From NCBI GenBank assembly GCA_018239895.1, contig JAFEGL010000045.1, positions 72,656 through 136,655 on the forward strand: DNA of 64,000 nt, read 5' to 3'. The notes under the pieces were generated by a model. It was given only the letters and a program-made list of their open reading frames with translations. It had not been told where the DNA came from and did not search any database. Source of the stretch: Verrucomicrobiota bacterium (GTDB taxonomy: Bacteria > Chlamydiota > Chlamydiia > Chlamydiales > SM23-39). How positions within the stretch are numbered: the stretch's first letter is position 1; every line of letters begins with the position of its first letter. Made by a program: the position numbers and the translations under genes. Shown one piece after another: positions 18,468 through 57,925 of the stretch.

Positions 18468-19286
18468 ATGTTGAACTGGAAAGAGATCGTTCAAAATTAT
18501 ATTAGCAAGTATTCCAACCTGATTCGGGCGGCGACCAAGCCCCTAAGAGACCGTCTTGGGCTTAAGTATTTTACGTATCACAAGATTGATAAGCAGGGGA
18601 AATACACCGTCTTAGTCGATCGCCCCGATTGGGCCGAGCACTATGTCGGGGAAAAATATTACTTGGTAGACCCCTACTTGAGACACCCCGATGTCTACCG
18701 ATCGGGTGTTTGCATGATCGGCTGCCATGGCTCGGAAGAATTTAAAGAGAAGCTGCATGGGGCAGCCAAAAAGTTCGATCTCGAGCAAAACGTTTTATTC
18801 ATCGATCGGTCGGAAGATTGCGTGGAATTCTACGGCTATTCGGGGAGCAAACGGGAATCGACATTAGATCGGGCCTATCTCAACCATCCGTGGATCTTCA
18901 AAGCTTTTGCGGGCTTTTTCAAGCGGGAGCTGGGGGCGATCTTGAGGCAGATGGAGGGAGAGGCAGGCTCTCTCATCGAATTGAAGGGGGGCGATTTTTT
19001 CTGTCCCGAGCCGATCAACCCCTCGTTGGACGACGAATTCGAAGCCTACTTAAAAGAGATCGGACAGGGAGAAGATCTTGAAAAGATCAAGCTTTTATCT
19101 CCAAGAGAGAAGCAGTGCATCCGGCTTTTTGCCGATGGGAAATCGGCCAAAAAGACGGGCGTGGACTTGGGGCTTTCTCCGAGGACAGTCGAGTCCTATT
19201 TTGAAAATATGAAAAACAAGCTCTCCTGCCACTCGAAGCAAGAGATCCTCGCTAGGGTAAAGCCCTTTTTGGACTTGTGGCCCTGA
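18468..19286 (+). CDS. LuxR-family transcription regulator (autoinducer-binding-like N-terminal domain plus C-terminal HTH); a LuxR solo
   Basis: C-terminus LSPREKQCIRLFADGKSAKKTGVDLGLSPRTVESYFENMKNKL (GerE/LuxR HTH). N-terminus FTYHKID...PDWAEHYVGEKYYLVDPY has the W-x3-Y-x8-DP spacing of AHL-receptor pockets. Confidence 0.8.
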   Translation: MLNWKEIVQNYISKYSNLIRAATKPLRDRLGLKYFTYHKIDKQGKYTVLVDRPDWAEHYVGEKYYLVDPYLRHPDVYRSGVCMIGCHGSEEFKEKLHGAAKKFDLEQNVLFIDRSEDCVEFYGYSGSKRESTLDRAYLNHPWIFKAFAGFFKRELGAILRQMEGEAGSLIELKGGDFFCPEPINPSLDDEFEAYLKEIGQGEDLEKIKLLSPREKQCIRLFADGKSAKKTGVDLGLSPRTVESYFENMKNKLSCHSKQEILARVKPFLDLWP

Positions 19287-19460
19287 GGCTCATTATTTAA
19301 AACGGCATGAAAGATGATCAGCGCAGAGGTAGAAGGAGTGTAGAAAGACGCAGAGAAAAAATATCCGGCAGGGATCCCAGAATTTTTTTCTCTGCGTCTC
19401 TCTCTACTCCTTCTATCTCTGCGCTGATCATCTTTCGTGTCGTCTTAGAGAATAAGCCTC
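19285..19460. repeat. ~176-bp imperfect palindromic element (arms of ~75 bp); a solo related arm occurs at 52366-52415
   Basis: The left arm gaggctcattat...gaaagatgatcagcgcagaggtagaaggagtgtagaaagacgcagagaaaaaa mirrors tttttttctctgcgtctctctctactccttctatctctgcgctgatcatctttc...agaataagcctc. It begins at the LuxR stop codon. Confidence 0.8.
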
Positions 19461-19539
19461 AGGCGCTACCGTAATTCTTACGGTGATTTGAAATTACGGC
19501 TCTTTTGGATAATCGCCCTCTCTAACAAGGAGAGAGGCG

Positions 19540-20994: not shown

Positions 20995-21828
20995 ATGTTC
21001 CGGCGCAGTTTGTTTTTGGCCCTCTCTCTCGTAGGCTCTGTCGTTGCAAGTCCCGAAGCGATCCAAAAGTACCTCGAATATTGCCGGAACTATCCTCTCT
21101 CTTTTGGAGAGAAGGGGGATTGGCAGCAAGGGGAGATCGAGACGGTCGCCGACTACGAGCAGATGTGCGAGATCGAGTCCCAATTTGCCATGCGCTATTT
21201 CAATAAGGGAATTCCGCTGAAAGAGGCTCTTGAGAGGAGCCGGCTCGGCGTCGTCTCTGAAGATGGATTCTGGGTTTGGGTTCGCGAGCCGCTTTTGTTT
21301 CCTGACGGCTCCTGCGACATCTACAACCGATTTGTCCATAAAAACTCGCTCAAGACGCCTCCAGGAGTGGAGGGGACTGTAGCAGCCGTCTTGGCCCTAA
21401 CGTACGGGGAGAAGATCGTTCTGAATGTGATCTTCCGCAACGCGACCCGTTCGTGGGAGATCGAGCTGCCGCGTGGAGGGCGGGAGCCTCTGGAATCGGC
21501 CGAAGATGCGGCTCGAAGAGAGGCAAAAGAGGAGACCGGCTGTGAGATAGAAGAGATCGTTCACTTGGGGACCTTCCCGATCGACAGCGCTGTGATTCGC
21601 GATTTCTACCACGTCTTTTTCGCCAAAGTAGCGGCCCTGGGAGATACCGACCGGGAAAACTCCGAGGTGATCGGCTCGATTCTAACCTTGACGAAAGAGG
21701 AGGCCAAAGACGCCCTTTGCGAAGGGAAGTTGGAAGTCGAGGTGCAGGGGAGAAAGGTCATGGCCCACTGCCGCGACCATTCTTTAGCTTACGCTATCCT
21801 TCTTGCTGAGTCGAAGGGACTTTTGTAG
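20995..21828 (+). CDS. NUDIX hydrolase with a signal peptide
   Basis: MFRRSLFLALSLVGSVVASP is followed by the Nudix box GGREPLESAEDAARREAKEETG. Confidence 0.8.
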   Translation: MFRRSLFLALSLVGSVVASPEAIQKYLEYCRNYPLSFGEKGDWQQGEIETVADYEQMCEIESQFAMRYFNKGIPLKEALERSRLGVVSEDGFWVWVREPLLFPDGSCDIYNRFVHKNSLKTPPGVEGTVAAVLALTYGEKIVLNVIFRNATRSWEIELPRGGREPLESAEDAARREAKEETGCEIEEIVHLGTFPIDSAVIRDFYHVFFAKVAALGDTDRENSEVIGSILTLTKEEAKDALCEGKLEVEVQGRKVMAHCRDHSLAYAILLAESKGLL

Positions 21829-23542
21829 GATCATAATCTTCCACAACGGCGAAAGGTGTTTGCATCGATGATGCTTGAGCCGATTGTTCCATCTCATGAT
21901 CATCATCGAAGGCTTCGACGTCATCGGCTGTGTGCTTGGTTGGCTTTTGAAAGTGGTCGCTCAGATTGGGTTGGACTTGCAGCGTCGCTACTTGCTCCAA
22001 TGGTTGCATATCTTGGTTCGTATCGAAGGCTTCGATGTCGTCCGGTGTGTGTTTGGGGGGCTTTACGACGTGACTTTCAGCCAGTGCGATTGGAGCAGTG
22101 AGGGTCGCCCTTTGTTCTGATTTGTGGGAGAAGACCGCCAGTTTTTTCTGCATCGTGAAAGTAGCCCCTTCCAGTTTATGAACCCCTTTCCGAATCCAGC
22201 GGCTGGCCCAGGATGGGAGAACGTGATCCAAATAGGAAGATAAGATCGCATGGTTGAGATCCCAGACAACTCCTATTTCCTCGCAAGGATCTAATTCCTC
22301 TTTGGTGAATTTCTGCAGATGGAGGAGGCCGCAATGGACAAAGTGTTTTAAATGGATCGGGATGATTGTCCGGAGAAACAACTCGTCGTCTTCATTGAGG
22401 AGACGCCCCCCAAAAAAACCAATTTCCATTTCAATGATCGCGTCGACGATCGCGCTGCCTGGCTTTGTCCAAAGATCTACCCGATTGTACAAAAAGCTTC
22501 GGATCGATTGTGAAATCGTTTGATCTTTCTGAATCTCTTTTCTGATCTCCTCATCCAGTCTTGCTGCCTTCAGTTTGTTTCCCGGCTCCTTTTGAAACTC
22601 CGTTTGGGCGTTTTGGATTTCGGGGGTATGTTTTAAGATCGATCCATAGGCTTTTAGTGTGTGTCCAGCCAGACGCACAATGAGGTCCTCATATTCCAAC
22701 TCGTTCCATTGGCTAAATGGAGTCGCAGCGAGCGCGGCTTTTAGCGAGCTTTTCCAAACTTCTAGGAAAATCGAGTAGATTTTGCTCTGATGGACTGGCG
22801 CTGCTTTTGAATCGAGGAAGCGCCTTGCTAAGAGTTGACTTAAAAGGGGTTGAATAACGGTTCCCGAAAGCTGGTTTTTCTTAAAGCAAGCAAGAACTTT
22901 CTCTACATAAGGGAACAGGATATTCCAGTTGAAGGCGGCCGTTTTTACTACCATGCCGACCAATGCACAGGGAATGTTTAAGATAGCGATGGTTGGGTTG
23001 ACGACCGCGTTGTAAAAGAGGGAGGCAAATTGATACCTAGCCATACCGATCCCGTAGCCTGCAGAGGGGTCTTCGCCCAAATAGACGATGTCCCTTCTTT
23101 TGAAGAGCCGTCCAGCGAGATCCAATCCGATGAATCCGCATATATTTTCTCCTACCATAGCGATTGCCGTAGAGAGAGTTTCGTTCGCAGTATCTCGTGT
23201 TAGATCCAAAGAAAAGGCAGACCAAACGATGGCAGCTCCAGCAGCTGTCGCCCCGAGGATAAGAAGTCTCGCTTTTGCTGTTTTTCCTGCTGTCAGAACG
23301 AAGGCTATGGGTAAGGCGAGAAGGCACCCGGCTCGGGTGAAGGGCATAATTAGCCTTTGCCCCAAACGGGGAACTAGGCTATCTGCCACATTGCGACTAT
23401 ACGATTTTCCATAAGAACCGAAAATCATTTCTGCAAGCCCTGAAATAGTGATTCGACTCAACGTGCAGCTCGCGATGTTCTTGAGGTTTTGAAATGAGAA
23501 GAATGTCGCGCATCGGCTTACACGTCCTACTGGTTCTGTCAT
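21794..23542 (-). CDS. Inc-like/effector-like membrane protein with a C-terminal acidic 39-aa tandem repeat
   Basis: 582 aa with paired hydrophobic segments near the N-terminus (LLALPIAFVLTAG...LLILGATAAGAAIVWSAF). The C-terminus repeats KPPKHTPDDIEAFDTNQDMQ / KPTKHTADDVEAFDDDHEME (DNA repeat ~21893-22075). Confidence 0.65.
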   Translation of the reverse strand: MTEPVGRVSRCATFFSFQNLKNIASCTLSRITISGLAEMIFGSYGKSYSRNVADSLVPRLGQRLIMPFTRAGCLLALPIAFVLTAGKTAKARLLILGATAAGAAIVWSAFSLDLTRDTANETLSTAIAMVGENICGFIGLDLAGRLFKRRDIVYLGEDPSAGYGIGMARYQFASLFYNAVVNPTIAILNIPCALVGMVVKTAAFNWNILFPYVEKVLACFKKNQLSGTVIQPLLSQLLARRFLDSKAAPVHQSKIYSIFLEVWKSSLKAALAATPFSQWNELEYEDLIVRLAGHTLKAYGSILKHTPEIQNAQTEFQKEPGNKLKAARLDEEIRKEIQKDQTISQSIRSFLYNRVDLWTKPGSAIVDAIIEMEIGFFGGRLLNEDDELFLRTIIPIHLKHFVHCGLLHLQKFTKEELDPCEEIGVVWDLNHAILSSYLDHVLPSWASRWIRKGVHKLEGATFTMQKKLAVFSHKSEQRATLTAPIALAESHVVKPPKHTPDDIEAFDTNQDMQPLEQVATLQVQPNLSDHFQKPTKHTADDVEAFDDDHEMEQSAQASSMQTPFAVVEDYDPTKVPSTQQEG

Positions 23543-29940: not shown

Positions 29941-31404
29941 ATGCAAAGAAACATCGAGGCTCAACCGAGGGGGTTGTTCCTTCTCTTTTTCACAGAGTTG
30001 TGGGAACGCTTCGGTTTTTACACTTTGCAGACGATCATCGTCCTCTACTTAAGCAAAGCGCTCCTCTTCACAGACGAAAAAGCCTATCTTCTCTACGGAA
30101 CGTTTAGCTCCCTTCTCTACATGACGCCAGTTTTTGGTGGGTATCTCGCCGACCGGTTCATCGGATTTCGGCAGTCGATCAATTTGGGAGGCATCCTCTT
30201 ATTCCTCGGCTACCTATTCCTGGCCGTCTCCGGAACAGAGTGGCTCTTCACGGGCCTTAGCCTCGTGATTGTTGGAAACGGCCTCTTCAAACCCAACGTC
30301 TCGAGCATAGTCGGGGAACTATACGGTCCAGAAGATCCTCGAAGAGATGGAGGATTCACCCTTTTCTACATGGGGATCAACATCGGAGCTCTCGTTCCTC
30401 CGCTCATCGCTGGAGCGATCATCTCCGCCTACAGCTGGAGCGCCGGGTTTTTCCTCGCCGCCATCGGCATGGGCATCGGCATGGTCACTTTCTGGTTGGG
30501 CCGGCACAGATTGGGCCATGCGGGGGGTATTCCAAGCATCAGCCCGCTCCACAAAGGCCACCACAAAAAGTGGGTTTTCTACATGGCCCTCCTCATTGGC
30601 ATCGTCCTTGCGACTGTGGTATTCCACCTTCTTCTCAAACATCCGAGAGAAGCCGATTGGATCTTGGCGATTGGCGCCCTCGCGATCATCGGGATGGTCC
30701 TCTATTACTTAATCAAAGAGCGGCCGGAGCAAAGACGCAAACTATGGGCTTGCTTGATCCTGATCTTGATCTCCGTCGGTTTTTGGTCTCTTTACAACCA
30801 GACTTTTACCTCGATGATGCTCTTCGCCGACCGGAACATGTCGAAAGAGTTTCTCGGCTTTACCATCGACGCCGAGTTCACCCAGTTTTTCAACCCGTTC
30901 TTCATCATCCTTCTCAGCCCGTTCCTCAGCTGGCTTTGGGTCCGGCTAGACCGAGATAAACTCAACCCGACGACGCCAAGCAAATTCTCTTTAGGTATTC
31001 TCTTCATGGCGGTCGGCTACCTCGTCCTCGGCGGAGCGACCTATCTCTTCCCAGAACAGGGGATGTCCTCGCCCTGGTGGCTCGTCCTCAGCTATTTCTT
31101 CCAAACGGTCGGCGAGCTGCTCCTCTCTCCAATCGGTCTGGCGATGATCACCCGCCTTTCGCCGCGCCACCTTGTCGGTATGATGATGGGCGTCTGGTTC
31201 TTAGTCCAGTCGGCCTCGTTTGCCATCGGCGGCGGCCTCGCCACCATCGCAGATGTCCCAACTACAGACACGGTCGTCCAATCGCTGTCGATTTACTCGG
31301 GAGCTTTCCTAATTTTCGGCGTGGTCTCCGTCATCCTCGCCATCATCAGCTTCTGCCTCGTCCCCTATCTCAAGAAGCTGATGGAATCCCCCCACCATCA
31401 TTAA
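29941..31404 (+). CDS. POT/PTR2-family proton-dependent oligopeptide transporter
   Basis: ELWERFGFY, GGYLADRFIGFRQSI and FYMGINIGA motifs, with about 14 TM segments. Confidence 0.9.
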   Translation: MQRNIEAQPRGLFLLFFTELWERFGFYTLQTIIVLYLSKALLFTDEKAYLLYGTFSSLLYMTPVFGGYLADRFIGFRQSINLGGILLFLGYLFLAVSGTEWLFTGLSLVIVGNGLFKPNVSSIVGELYGPEDPRRDGGFTLFYMGINIGALVPPLIAGAIISAYSWSAGFFLAAIGMGIGMVTFWLGRHRLGHAGGIPSISPLHKGHHKKWVFYMALLIGIVLATVVFHLLLKHPREADWILAIGALAIIGMVLYYLIKERPEQRRKLWACLILILISVGFWSLYNQTFTSMMLFADRNMSKEFLGFTIDAEFTQFFNPFFIILLSPFLSWLWVRLDRDKLNPTTPSKFSLGILFMAVGYLVLGGATYLFPEQGMSSPWWLVLSYFFQTVGELLLSPIGLAMITRLSPRHLVGMMMGVWFLVQSASFAIGGGLATIADVPTTDTVVQSLSIYSGAFLIFGVVSVILAIISFCLVPYLKKLMESPHHH

Positions 31405-31408
31405 AAAT

Positions 31409-31503
31409 CAGTCGGGGCTTTGCCCCGACTACGCTCCCCTGCCCCTGCCCTTGCCCCTGCCTATGGGGCAGCGGGGGGCTTCGCCCCGACTGCGCTCCCC
31501 TGC
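31409..31503. repeat. left GC-rich repeat of the four-helix-bundle cassette (hairpin agtcggggc-ttt-gccccgact plus one unit in inverse orientation to the right repeat)
   Basis: The sequence gcgctcccctgcccctgcccttgcccctgcctatggggcagcggggggcttcgccccgactgc is the reverse complement of the units at 31941-32095. C-tracts at 31436-31457 form a G4 motif on the minus strand. Confidence 0.85.
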
Positions 31504-31857
31504 ACCAGACTTCTTAGCCAACTTTATCAACATGGCTACGATTGTTAATACAAACTCACGTCCTCGCAAGTAATTTGATTCATCGATTATTCCTAGTTGT
31601 CTACACACATCAAGTATCGCAGCACATTCAGTCGCTGATCTTTTTGCCATTCGGTAAAATCGACACTTCTCCTGAACTGCGAATTCTCCAGCACCTTCTG
31701 CAATATTTAACGACACTGATAAACCTGCTCGCTGAAATTGATCAACTAAATAAGCTCTTCCTCGAGGCAACTCCTTCACAATCTCATCAATCAATCCAAC
31801 GAATTTGATGGATGTTTGATAAACCTCCATTTTTTCATGATCAAAATATCGCATCAT
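31429..31857 (-). CDS. four-helix-bundle protein (23S rRNA intervening-sequence protein / Avd family)
   Basis: QFQRAGLSVSLNIAEGAGEF...AKRSATECAAILDV matches the family signature (QlrRAa.Si.lNIAEG ... A.gS..E). The last ~22 aa (GERSRGEAPRCPIGRGKGRGRGA) are encoded by the flanking repeat. Confidence 0.8.
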   Translation of the reverse strand: MMRYFDHEKMEVYQTSIKFVGLIDEIVKELPRGRAYLVDQFQRAGLSVSLNIAEGAGEFAVQEKCRFYRMAKRSATECAAILDVCRQLGIIDESNYLRGREFVLTIVAMLIKLAKKSGAGERSRGEAPRCPIGRGKGRGRGA

Positions 31858-31940
31858 CCTTGTCTCTCCTTGTCCGTGTGTATGAAGACAAAATATGATC
31901 TGTTGTTAGCGAGTTCTTTTCATTGATTTATTTTTTAAGG

Positions 31941-32095
31941 CAGTCGGGGCGAAGCCCCCGCTGCCCCATAGGCAGGGGCACGGGCACGGGCACGGGCAGG
32001 GGAGCGCAGTCGGGGCGAAGCCCCCGCTGCCCCATAGGCAGGGGCAAGGGCACGGGCAGGGGCACGGGCAGGGGAGCGCAGTCGGGGCGAAGCCT
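31941..32095. repeat. right GC-rich tandem repeat (2.2 units of ~66-72 bp) with (GGGCAN)n microrepeats and G-quadruplex motifs
   Basis: Units start at 31941, 32007 and 32079 (cagtcggggcgaagcccccgctgccccataggcagggg...). G4 motifs are GGGGCACGGGCACGGGCACGGGCAGGGG at 31975-32002 and a second at 32041-32074. Confidence 0.9.
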
Positions 32096-32100
32096 GCTTT

Positions 32101-32781
32101 TTAGAAGAAGCCGGGGAAGAAGGGGAGAGGGACGCCGCCGGGGACGTACTCGAAGGGGCTGATTGTCTGGAGAAGCTGGTTGAGATTAACCCGCTTGAAC
32201 ACGTCTTGCATCATGAGACGGAAAAGGAGCTTTTCGATATCGGAGAGGGGTAACCCCTCTTGGTTGGAGATATTCGCGAATTCGATCCGCTCAATCGGTT
32301 CGAACCGTTTGACTGAGCCGTCAGCTTGGGTGATCTGGACGGTGATGTTTTTCAAGACTAGGCTTTTGATCAGAAAGTTTCTCGCTTTTTGAGACTGCTT
32401 CTTTTTACTTTTGGTCAAAATGTGGGACCAGTTGTTGTTCGAGCCATCTAGATTATAAAATTCGATGCCGACAACGATGTTGTCCATCTCGATCAAGTCG
32501 ATGATGAGCGGATCGGTTAGGATCTTTTTGAGAGATAAATCGATCTCAACTTGATCGGCTGAAAAGGAGGTTTGAGTTTTAGATTGGGTTGGGTTGCCCG
32601 CCCAGAGGCGGATGAATTGCGATTGGTCCATCCCCAGTTTAAGAGAGCGGATTTTCACCGGGATATGGAGCTGCTTGGCGAGGAAGTTGGAGACGATGTG
32701 GGTCCTATTTCCCCAGGCGACTAAAGCGGAGAGGAGAAGGCCGAGGACGATGACGCCAAGAAAGGTGAACGTATTTTTCAT
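32101..32781 (-). CDS. membrane-anchored hypothetical protein (paralog of 32851-33534)
   Basis: N-terminal TM helix, and shared blocks with its divergent neighbour (DLIEMDNIVVGIEFYNLDGSNNNW vs DLIDLENIFLSVEFKDSMGTSNNW; LVLKNITVQI vs LVVRNLTIEI). Confidence 0.65.
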   Translation of the reverse strand: MKNTFTFLGVIVLGLLLSALVAWGNRTHIVSNFLAKQLHIPVKIRSLKLGMDQSQFIRLWAGNPTQSKTQTSFSADQVEIDLSLKKILTDPLIIDLIEMDNIVVGIEFYNLDGSNNNWSHILTKSKKKQSQKARNFLIKSLVLKNITVQITQADGSVKRFEPIERIEFANISNQEGLPLSDIEKLLFRLMMQDVFKRVNLNQLLQTISPFEYVPGGVPLPFFPGFF

Positions 32782-57668: not shown

Positions 57669-57696
57669 CTCTTAGATAAGTCGGAAGCCCTAAACA

Positions 57697-57846
57697 TGTA
57701 ATGCAGAAACCTAACCCGTGGAAGGGGGCAATCTGCTGCGTCGCCCTGCATCGACAACCCCATAAAGGGGTTGCCTGCTTCGGGAACCCCCTGCGGGGCT
57801 CCTTGCATATTACCCTCTTGCACGGGTTAGGTTTCTGCATTACATA
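57697..57846. mobile_element. MITE-like element: perfect 25-bp terminal inverted repeats around 100 bp of internally palindromic sequence
   Basis: atgtaatgcagaaacctaacccgtg (57697-57721) is the exact reverse complement of cacgggttaggtttctgcattacat (57822-57846). The interior contains aaccccataaaggggtt and ccccctgcgggg hairpins. It has no coding capacity. Confidence 0.6.
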
Positions 57847-57925
57847 TTAAGGACTACCGATAATTCTTGAACAATAATTACTCATGTTGCATGTGTGACT
57901 TAGAGATCTAAGGAGACATGCAACC

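Follow-up and report, generated by a model that had tools for sequence, protein, structure and literature searches.

What is a lone gene of the 23S rRNA intervening-sequence type doing between two protein-coding genes, enclosed by inverted GC-rich repeats? The question is raised by a locus on contig JAFEGL010000045.1 of a Verrucomicrobiota bacterium (GenBank assembly GCA_018239895.1), which is placed by GTDB in the Chlamydiales lineage SM23-39. The stretch analyzed, referred to as the window, comprises 64,000 nucleotides (nt) of the forward strand, positions 72,656 to 136,655, and the coordinates given here count from its first letter. In the gap between a POT family transporter gene and a DUF748 gene, the sole open reading frame (ORF) is 31429-31857 on the minus strand, which encodes a protein of 142 aa, and inverted GC-rich units bracket this gene, on the left at 31409-31503 and on the right at 31940-32094, where they form tandem units of 66 and 72 nt. 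A preliminary description, drawn from the letters alone, had regarded the gap as an autonomous, possibly mobile cassette with G-quadruplex motifs in its arms. The evidence presented here suggests that positions 31431-32094 are probably a mobile cassette of the rRNA intervening sequence (IVS) type, which is non-autonomous and carries no transposase.

Support for a discrete and variable unit comes from the comparison of samples. Sequencing runs X1-X5 hold the locus, cassette included, at 99-100% identity, and the strain in X4 has one arm unit fewer, its contig joining position 32022 straight to TGCTTTTTAG. In runs X6 (biofilm) and X12 (soil), the cassette is missing from a relative in which both flanking genes are ~96% identical. 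The sequence of this relative diverges from that of the window precisely at 31430|31431 and 32094|32095, no part of it aligns to 31449-31936 even at 80% likeness, and the foreign sequence left of 32095 is identical in X6 and X12, which are independent samples. The cassette thus differs between close relatives, with breakpoints at the arm ends, and the earlier idea of a discrete, apparently mobile unit is borne out. The hairpin at 31409-31430 had been counted as part of the left repeat (31409-31503); the repeat is indeed present, but the hairpin lies outside the variable cassette because it is retained in cassette-less relatives, that of X6 among them. In run X1, a 6-kb contig follows the POT gene to 31407, where CCATCGCGGGCAGTCGGGCGAAGCCCCGCT replaces the window sequence, and this may be a second form of the junction or else the route that the assembly took through the repeat.

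The arms themselves are not unique to the locus. In the source sample, contigs of similar depth run from the arm into unrelated sequence, and the arm region reaches ~9x the summed contig depth of its flanks, an excess that may not reflect one genome since array abundance is also high in other community members. The X6 relative carries a solo arm copy on a 6.3-kb contig. In run X11 (wastewater), where the organism itself is present at ~2x, a 31-nt contig consists of the hexamer array (window 31972-32002) at a word depth of 950, so that arrays of this kind are highly abundant throughout that community. Moreover, over ~60 nt, the inner arm module and the hexamer array share homology with cassette arms from other organisms and contexts, such as L006, L014, which comes from a Verrucomicrobiae metagenome-assembled genome (MAG), and L001, where the cassette is situated between smpB and dnaN and the encoded protein is 58% identical. 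It is the sequence of the inner module, not just its pairing, that is conserved across organisms whose proteins are 58-66% identical. An exact search of one-genome-per-species contigs with the 21-nt unit core gave no match, exact look-ups of the POT and DUF748 proteins gave no record, and no transposase-bearing element with the window's own arm sequence was found. No clean empty site was seen among distant DUF748 relatives (39-54% identity), of which L104 keeps the order GroEL-DUF748-DUF748 and shows no arm over the 115 nt that follow the gene, and L103 has a different neighbor.

The enclosed gene belongs to the family to which it had been assigned from the letters alone. Its product scores 77.3 bits against PF05635 (cut-off 33.8; residues 8-111) and 73.2 bits against NCBIfam TIGR02436 (cut-off 24). 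An AlphaFold model of the monomer, built from 24 relatives, has a predicted local distance difference test (pLDDT) score of 84.5, with helices at residues 7-29, 35-55, 61-88, and 93-123 and a C-terminal tail (residues 123-142) that is disordered, with pLDDT <50. The best Foldseek matches were Xcc0516 (2GSC; template modeling (TM) score 0.90, root-mean-square deviation 1.7 Å) and BT_0352 (2RLD; TM 0.86), neither of which is part of a diversity-generating retroelement (DGR), and Avd (4DWL, 8UB7) was matched at TM 0.82-0.86 with an identity of 8-13%. The 142-aa protein is a member of PF05635 with the Avd fold. In 2GSC, 2RLD, and 4DWL, five chains are present each, and in 8UB7, Avd is found within an RNA-protein complex; by analogy with the five chains of these relatives, the protein may assemble into a homopentameric ring. 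The conserved family motif is GxxRxxxSxxxNxxE (PMC3936711); R43, S47, N51, E54, and G55 do not vary in alignment A1, and this clade has Q40 in place of the motif's first G. A protein search returned 3654 matches at E ≤ 0.001, the named homologues coming from MAGs of Parachlamydiaceae and Rhabdochlamydiaceae. No relatives of the protein were found in viral contigs, and a tblastn search of plasmids with the window protein gave no match.

The 3' end of the ORF reveals how closely gene and arm adjoin. As the TAG stop (31429-31431) spans the cassette boundary, with one base in the cassette and two bases in the resident hairpin, the C-terminal tail is a read-through into the arm, which encodes residues 124-142. 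Invasion or capture of the gene end by the repeat had been proposed. The left arm does contain the final ~24 codons along with the stop, but reading into the arm is variable and incidental among relatives: many homologues are tailed QSGEAPAAPSGHGHG or GTGTG, which are the same repeats in other reading frames, and tails of GHGHG, GTGTG, and GRGRG in different frames are found along with genes that stop 5' of the arm.

The GC content is 77-78% in the arms, 39% in the gene core, and 49.7% in the whole window, within which the unit motifs are confined to the cassette (6 and 3 matches vs 0.18 and 0.00 expected). The array unit is GGGCAN, and the arrays, 26-38 nt in length, are each part of a tandemly amplified unit of 66-72 nt; the inner module is resembled by the resident hairpin. 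Complementarity is 87-100% over arm pairs of 27-53 nt, consistent with the inverted bracketing units, including 2.2 tandem units on the right, that had been described before. The predicted fold of the transcript has an energy of -338.5 kcal/mol vs -230 ± 10 for shuffles (z = -10.8), and contains a near-continuous closing stem of ~95 bp. A Shine-Dalgarno-like AAGGAGAG is located in the spacer about 8 nt 5' of the ATG, and no sigma-70-like promoter was found in the spacer on the gene's strand. Because the DUF748 stop codon is only 6 nt from the 5' arm, the DUF748 gene is the likely source of read-through transcription. In this respect, the view that the cassette lies between convergent genes holds for POT only, since the DUF748 gene is co-directional and directly upstream of the bundle gene. 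An Rfam scan of the whole window gave no family at gathering score and no meaningful match in the arms, and thus, as stated earlier, the window contains no rRNA.

Gene and arms recur together far beyond this locus. When 80 metagenomic loci were fetched by protein similarity alone, 79 were non-redundant, and terminal inverted arms of period-6 arrays are present in at least 53 of the 66 evaluable loci. Significant arms occur ≤300 nt from the ORF in 30 loci (including L042, later reinterpreted), and in 22 the arms take in 790-1800 nt of sequence on the upstream side of the gene; 16 loci have no ungapped inverted repeat, several of them still with arrays, and 13 are truncated. Polarity is strict, with (NTGCCC)n upstream of the gene and (GGGCAN)n downstream. 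The unit differs by locus (GGGCAC, GGGCAA/G, GCAAAC, TCGCAA, GGGGAC, CGGACT, and CAGGCA), and both arms of a locus match each other, the score per length being 0.90 for own arms vs 0.29 for arms across loci. Array length has a sharp peak: among 148 period-6 arrays, 46 are 32-33 nt long and 85 fall within 29-35 nt, with a typical form of CG(N4CG)5 and a mode of 5.3 hexamers. An rRNA location was found in none of the 20 related loci tested. Two of the loci, L030 and L032, represent one element from two samples; in L030, the 5' unit is duplicated, and an extra partial copy of the gene 3' end and arm follows ~110 nt downstream. Gene-less inverted array pairs (C-array, short loop, G-array) are also present near PF05635 genes in high-GC organisms (L089, L093, L035, L062, L078, L068, L088, L094, and L096).

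The hairpin motif CAGTCGGGG(N3-6)CCCCCGCTGCCC, considered as a marker of the cassette, was rejected as such, being a separate dispersed module. It is found in 16 loci (L007-L022), none of which has a PF05635 gene in the stored stretch, at up to five copies per MAG and in combination with other repeat modules. Its hosts are MAGs labelled Chlamydiota, Verrucomicrobiota, or, in several cases, only 'uncultured bacterium'. The match in L010, from a Gemmatimonadaceae MAG, is without such a repeat module and may be due to chance.

Evidence for mobility comes from the loci with long arms. In all seven of those tested, the enclosed ORF is a transposase, and six Pfam families are represented: DDE_3/IS630, IS66 (two loci, in either orientation), DDE_Tnp_4 with HTH_Tnp_4, DDE_Tnp_1_5, DDE_Tnp_1_3, and DDE_Tnp_1_2. 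The PF05635 gene is located at one end of these insertion sequences (ISs). The carriers comprise IS630-like (L027, L028, and L081), IS66-like (L026 and L023), and DDE_Tnp_4 (L005, L029, L038, L066, and L080) elements as well as others (L036, L051, and L091). Element ends were mapped in one family only, DDE_Tnp_4, where independent insertions have common ends, TAGACTTCTTTCGAAAC followed by an array on the left and an array followed by GTTTCGAAAGAAGTCTA on the right, and unrelated outside flanks; the arrays are therefore inside the mobile unit, adjoining the terminal repeats. The same layout is read at the ends of IS630-like and IS66-like elements. As the outer terminal repeats differ by transposase family and the arrays and the PF05635 gene are common to all, the arrays follow the gene and not the transposase. 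The notion that the cassette is autonomous is not upheld: it has no transposase, and its relatives reside inside ISs or look like transposase-less derivatives.

Two of these loci show rearrangements of their own. L042 was at first taken for a solo cassette that had arisen via transposase loss, an interpretation that was rejected: positions 635-882 are a gene-less miniature inverted-repeat transposable element (MITE) of ~250 nt (terminal repeat and C-array, then G-array and terminal repeat), and this MITE lies directly 5' of a PF05635 gene that retains its own right end, that is, beside a truncated element. In L029, the PF05635 gene stands between two copies of the final ~120 nt of the transposase gene (about 1090-1210 and 1820-1939).

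A distant, canonical branch of the family displays the same architecture. Annotated plasmids were searched with the Xcc0516 sequence, and inverted arrays of period 7 or period 8 flank the PF05635 gene in 13 of the 14 loci fetched, from Anabaena, Nostoc, Calothrix, Stanieria, Pseudanabaena, Picosynechococcus, Aulosira, Geminocystis, and Gemmatirosa. In the 12 cyanobacterial loci, the inverted arrays have period 7 (period 8 in one). These arrays are typically 24-37 nt with 4-5 copies, purine-rich and often AGGAG-like upstream, and CTCCT-like downstream. The upstream gene is on the same strand in 12 of the 14 loci, with gaps of about 25-200 nt in those read, and the operon contexts include cas6-IVP-cas4, cas10-IVP-cmr3, integrase-IVP, and ISL3 transposase-IVP. 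In L106, L111, and L112, all cyanobacterial plasmids, the PF05635 genes are within cas operons and surrounded by inverted heptamer or octamer arrays, with Shine-Dalgarno-like AGGAG units upstream and CTCCT units downstream.

On these grounds, the window copy of the mobile, transposase-less cassette would be a derivative that is moved by a transposase supplied in trans. Probably lacking a promoter of its own, it would be transcribed together with the DUF748 gene, as an extension on the 3' side, and the transcript would end at the resident hairpin and U-run. In this transcript, the arms are predicted to pair into a duplex of ~95 bp from which the ORF is looped out, and the duplex may be a substrate of RNase III, by analogy with PF05635-bearing IVSs. 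The protein, pentameric if it resembles its homologues, may act on the arrays or on the array duplex.

Several observations weigh against this interpretation. The site in X6 and X12 is not a clean empty site, as it carries at least 279 nt of other sequence, and thus replacement or independent events are possible. No target-site duplication is readable, because the TA..TA at the outermost TAAAAA/TTTTTA is inseparable from the inverted repeat, and the 64-kb window holds no transposase and no second full copy of the cassette. The excess of co-directional upstream genes among the metagenomic loci is weak, 35 vs 27 in a crude ORF-based test. Arm mismatches have no strand bias (10 of G.U type vs 12 of A.C type), and of 28 arms, 12 pair perfectly, so that selection for RNA pairing is not separable from a DNA-level cause; the public RNA runs searched included none covering the locus.

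Two extensions of the mobile-cassette interpretation are put forward tentatively. One of these generalizes it: PF05635 and the inverted ~32-nt tandem arrays may be one portable module, which rides in, or is recruited by, unrelated transposable elements, which gives rise to classical IVSs where copies enter rRNA, and whose heptamer versions would be the cyanobacterial STRR (short tandemly repeated repetitive) sequences, with a ring-shaped protein that reads the arrays or their duplex and thereby controls processing or mobility. The same module may exist as gene-only cassettes and gene-less hairpins too. The other, which supplements the mobile cassette and does not exclude it, is that an oligomer would bind both terminal arrays, in DNA or RNA form, and act as an accessory of the mobile element by synapsing its ends, controlling transposition, or protecting from RNase III, with about five hexamers read per pentamer. 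This is conceivable, although we would not rely on it. It is favored by the arrays that accompany the PF05635 gene over at least six transposase families in spite of different outer terminal repeats, by the conserved sequence of the inner arm module, and by a modal array of 5.3 hexamers that recalls the five chains of the solved relatives and the RNA-protein complex of Avd. The count is the difficulty. Total array length is kept over periods 6, 7, and 8, at ~30-35 nt with 4-5 copies where the period is 7 or 8, which is more in line with a ruler of about three helical turns than with a five-unit count; the formula of one pentamer to five hexamers is weakened, since it is length and not copy number that is kept.

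A domesticated, immobile gene is an unlikely explanation. Here the arms would be no more than an mRNA element with a role in stability, autoregulation, or processing by RNase III, and the strain difference would be a deletion or replacement in the relatives. The very stable stem would suit such a role, as would a protein identity of 60-75% with 41 invariant columns, suggesting purifying selection, and the lack of a clean empty site in relatives. Furthermore, the cyanobacterial AGGAG-like array adjoins the start codon, and its pairing with the CTCCT-like array would mask the ribosome-binding site. However, the same arms are present in unrelated genomic contexts, arrays are found inside the ends of bona fide ISs whose outside flanks are unrelated, and the core is compositionally foreign, with a GC content of 39% vs 50%.

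The G-quadruplex (G4) reading, in which the function of a recombinogenic cassette rests on G4 structures of its (GGGCAN)n tracts, is very improbable. Motifs satisfying the G3+N1-7 pattern are present in the arms at 31975-32002 and 32041-32074 on the plus strand and at 31436-31457 on the minus strand, the first and last of them as reported before, making up three of the four in the 64-kb window, and GGGCAN units are common among related cassettes. Nevertheless, homologous cassettes retain the length and inversion of their arrays even where the units, often devoid of G-runs, are incapable of quadruplex formation, among them the hexamers GCAAAC, TCGCAA, CGGACT, and CAGGCA and the heptamers CTGACTC, CTGTTCC, AGTCAGG, and AAAAGCT; G4 formation as the organizing principle is not supported. 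In addition, each G-rich array is opposite a fully complementary C-rich array, and duplex would compete with quadruplex. G4 potential, as judged by pattern, is real and is not a conserved property of homologous cassettes.

The remaining two readings deserve hardly any credence. An orphan Avd gene left by a DGR would account for the Avd-like fold, but the protein is much closer to the non-DGR structures and has no relatives in viral contigs, and the reading is rejected since, in keeping with the preliminary description, no reverse-transcriptase domain was found in ORFs ≥220 aa within about 10 kb (housekeeping or no Pfam match) and no template/variable repeat (TR/VR)-like sequence. A chance placement of an ordinary small gene between two clusters of a genome-wide REP-like repeat, as might be imagined from the gene-less CAGTCGGGG..CCCCCGCTGCCC hairpins, one of them resident at 31409-31430, is highly improbable given that gene and inverted arrays recur in locus sets chosen by protein alone, metagenomic and plasmid alike, and that arms and gene are gained or lost together.

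The features of the locus are compiled in the table.

Table. Coordinates of the cassette, its parts, and the neighboring features in the window
Feature	Position	Strand	Basis
Variable cassette, 664 nt (5' arm, spacer, four-helix-bundle ORF, 3' arm)	31431-32094	-	strain comparison
Four-helix-bundle ORF, 142 aa, PF05635/TIGR02436	31429-31857	-	profile scores
Folded core, residues 7-123	about 31489-31839	-	AlphaFold model
3' arm, about 1.1 unit	31431-31503	-	
3' arm hexamer array, 4.3 copies, G-rich in sense RNA	31436-31461		
3' arm inner module, CAGTCGGGGCGAAGCCCCCCGCTGCCCC	about 31465-31492	reverse strand	
AT-rich spacer / 5' leader, 34% GC	31858-31939	-	
5' arm, 2.2 tandem units, C-rich in sense RNA	31940-32094	-	
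5' arm units	31940-32005, 32006-32077, 32078-32094		
5' arm hexamer arrays	31971-32002 (5.3 copies, 32 nt); 32037-32074 (6.3 copies, 38 nt)		
Resident hairpin CAGTCGGGGCTTTGCCCCGACT, then ATTTTT on the - strand; terminator-like	31409-31430	-	terminator scan
DUF748/AsmA-like membrane protein, co-directional upstream neighbor	32101-32781	-	
POT/PTR2 family transporter, convergent neighbor	29941-31404	+	

Repeats of other kinds are present elsewhere in the window. A near-perfect palindrome at 19282-19463, with 87-nt arms 8 nt apart, has a related 59-nt copy 33 kb off, at 52358-52416, and the two represent another dispersed hairpin repeat family of this genome. An inverted repeat at 57681-57860 has arms of 56 nt, 86% complementary, with 68 nt separating them. 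Two direct 88-nt copies at 21860-22064, 73% identical and 117 nt apart, sit in a 582-aa ORF (21794-23542, minus strand) that has no Pfam match.

The general array rule, more than the locus itself, is the interesting part. From this locus, a simple rule emerges, namely that a PF05635 gene lies between two tandem-repeat arrays of about 30-35 nt in inverted orientation, and it spans chlamydia-like bacteria, cyanobacteria, and Gemmatimonadota, as well as ISs of six transposase Pfam families and cas and other operons. PF05635 is a very large family whose role outside DGRs has been without assignment since the description of rRNA IVSs, and cyanobacterial short tandem repeat arrays are equally unexplained. 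If the portable-module proposal were true, it would represent a previously unrecognized kind of mobile-element accessory system and would account for two features that have been unexplained since their description in the early 1990s. The searchable literature contained no description of the flanking arrays, of the association with ISs, or of a link between STRR and PF05635; earlier papers noted PF05635 genes merely within cas loci and rRNA insertions. For annotation, such cassettes are of practical concern, because they interrupt operons, carry ORFs on into repeats, disrupt metagenome assemblies, and could be mistaken for CRISPR-like or G4 features.

One of the closest known systems is the 23S rRNA IVS, where this layout was first seen and in which terminal complementary sequences form a long stem and a PF05635 ORF occupies the loop. 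According to those passages of PMC4990558 that cite Ralph & McClelland 1993 and Afseth 1995, rRNA IVSs with a PF05635 ORF are found in Leptospira, Coxiella, Brucella, and Haemophilus. These IVSs are about 0.4-0.75 kb, and a mobile origin has long been suspected (PMC4990558). In Coxiella, RNase III was demonstrated experimentally to excise a PF05635-bearing IVS whose terminal stem is 28 bp long, and variable-number short tandem repeats, heptamers GACAGAT, are situated beside the ORF (PMC4990558). Unlike the IVS, the window cassette is outside rRNA and flanked by protein-coding genes, and none of the 20 related loci tested is in rRNA; its stem is ~95 bp of amplified units vs 28 bp in Coxiella, and its arms are period-6 arrays of fixed length.

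With ISs that carry passenger genes and with MITEs (IS630, IS66, and IS5/IS4-type DDE), the cassette shares terminal inverted repeats, presence or absence by strain, apparently dispersed arm copies, and the existence of transposase-less and gene-less derivatives. It differs from them in that the window copy has neither a transposase nor a readable target duplication, and in that the feature common to unrelated transposase families is the subterminal ~32-nt array with the PF05635 gene and not the terminal repeat. Repetitive extragenic palindromes (REP) and bacterial interspersed mosaic elements (BIME) are likewise GC-rich hairpin units, in tandem, at gene ends, and in many copies per genome. 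In contrast to these, the window units enclose a gene, are gained and lost with it, and contain a length-constrained tandem array, and no RAYT-type transposase was seen. Avd (4DWL, 8UB7) belongs to the same four-helix-bundle superfamily and is a pentamer that works with nucleic acid, but the window locus has no reverse transcriptase and no template or variable repeats, the identity is as low as stated above, and the closest structures are 2GSC and 2RLD.

STRR sequences consist of tandem 7-nt units, with few copies per array, and often form inverted pairs able to fold into hairpins. They are said to have been described in cyanobacteria by Mazel et al. in 1990 as short tandemly repeated repetitive heptanucleotides and, to go by the title of a paper by Vioque from 1997, reportedly occur inside RNase P RNA, a structural RNA gene. 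The heptamer arrays that flank the PF05635 gene in inverted orientation in the 12 cyanobacterial plasmid loci look like these sequences, and we tentatively take them to be STRR, a link for which no publication was found, although the classical STRR1 unit CCCCAGT is absent from all fetched loci; the window, by contrast, uses hexamers and its host is chlamydia-like. Taken together, the cassette is not part of a DGR; it is MITE-like with a passenger gene, its cognate transposase and target duplication being unproven, and it is IVS-like but outside rRNA.

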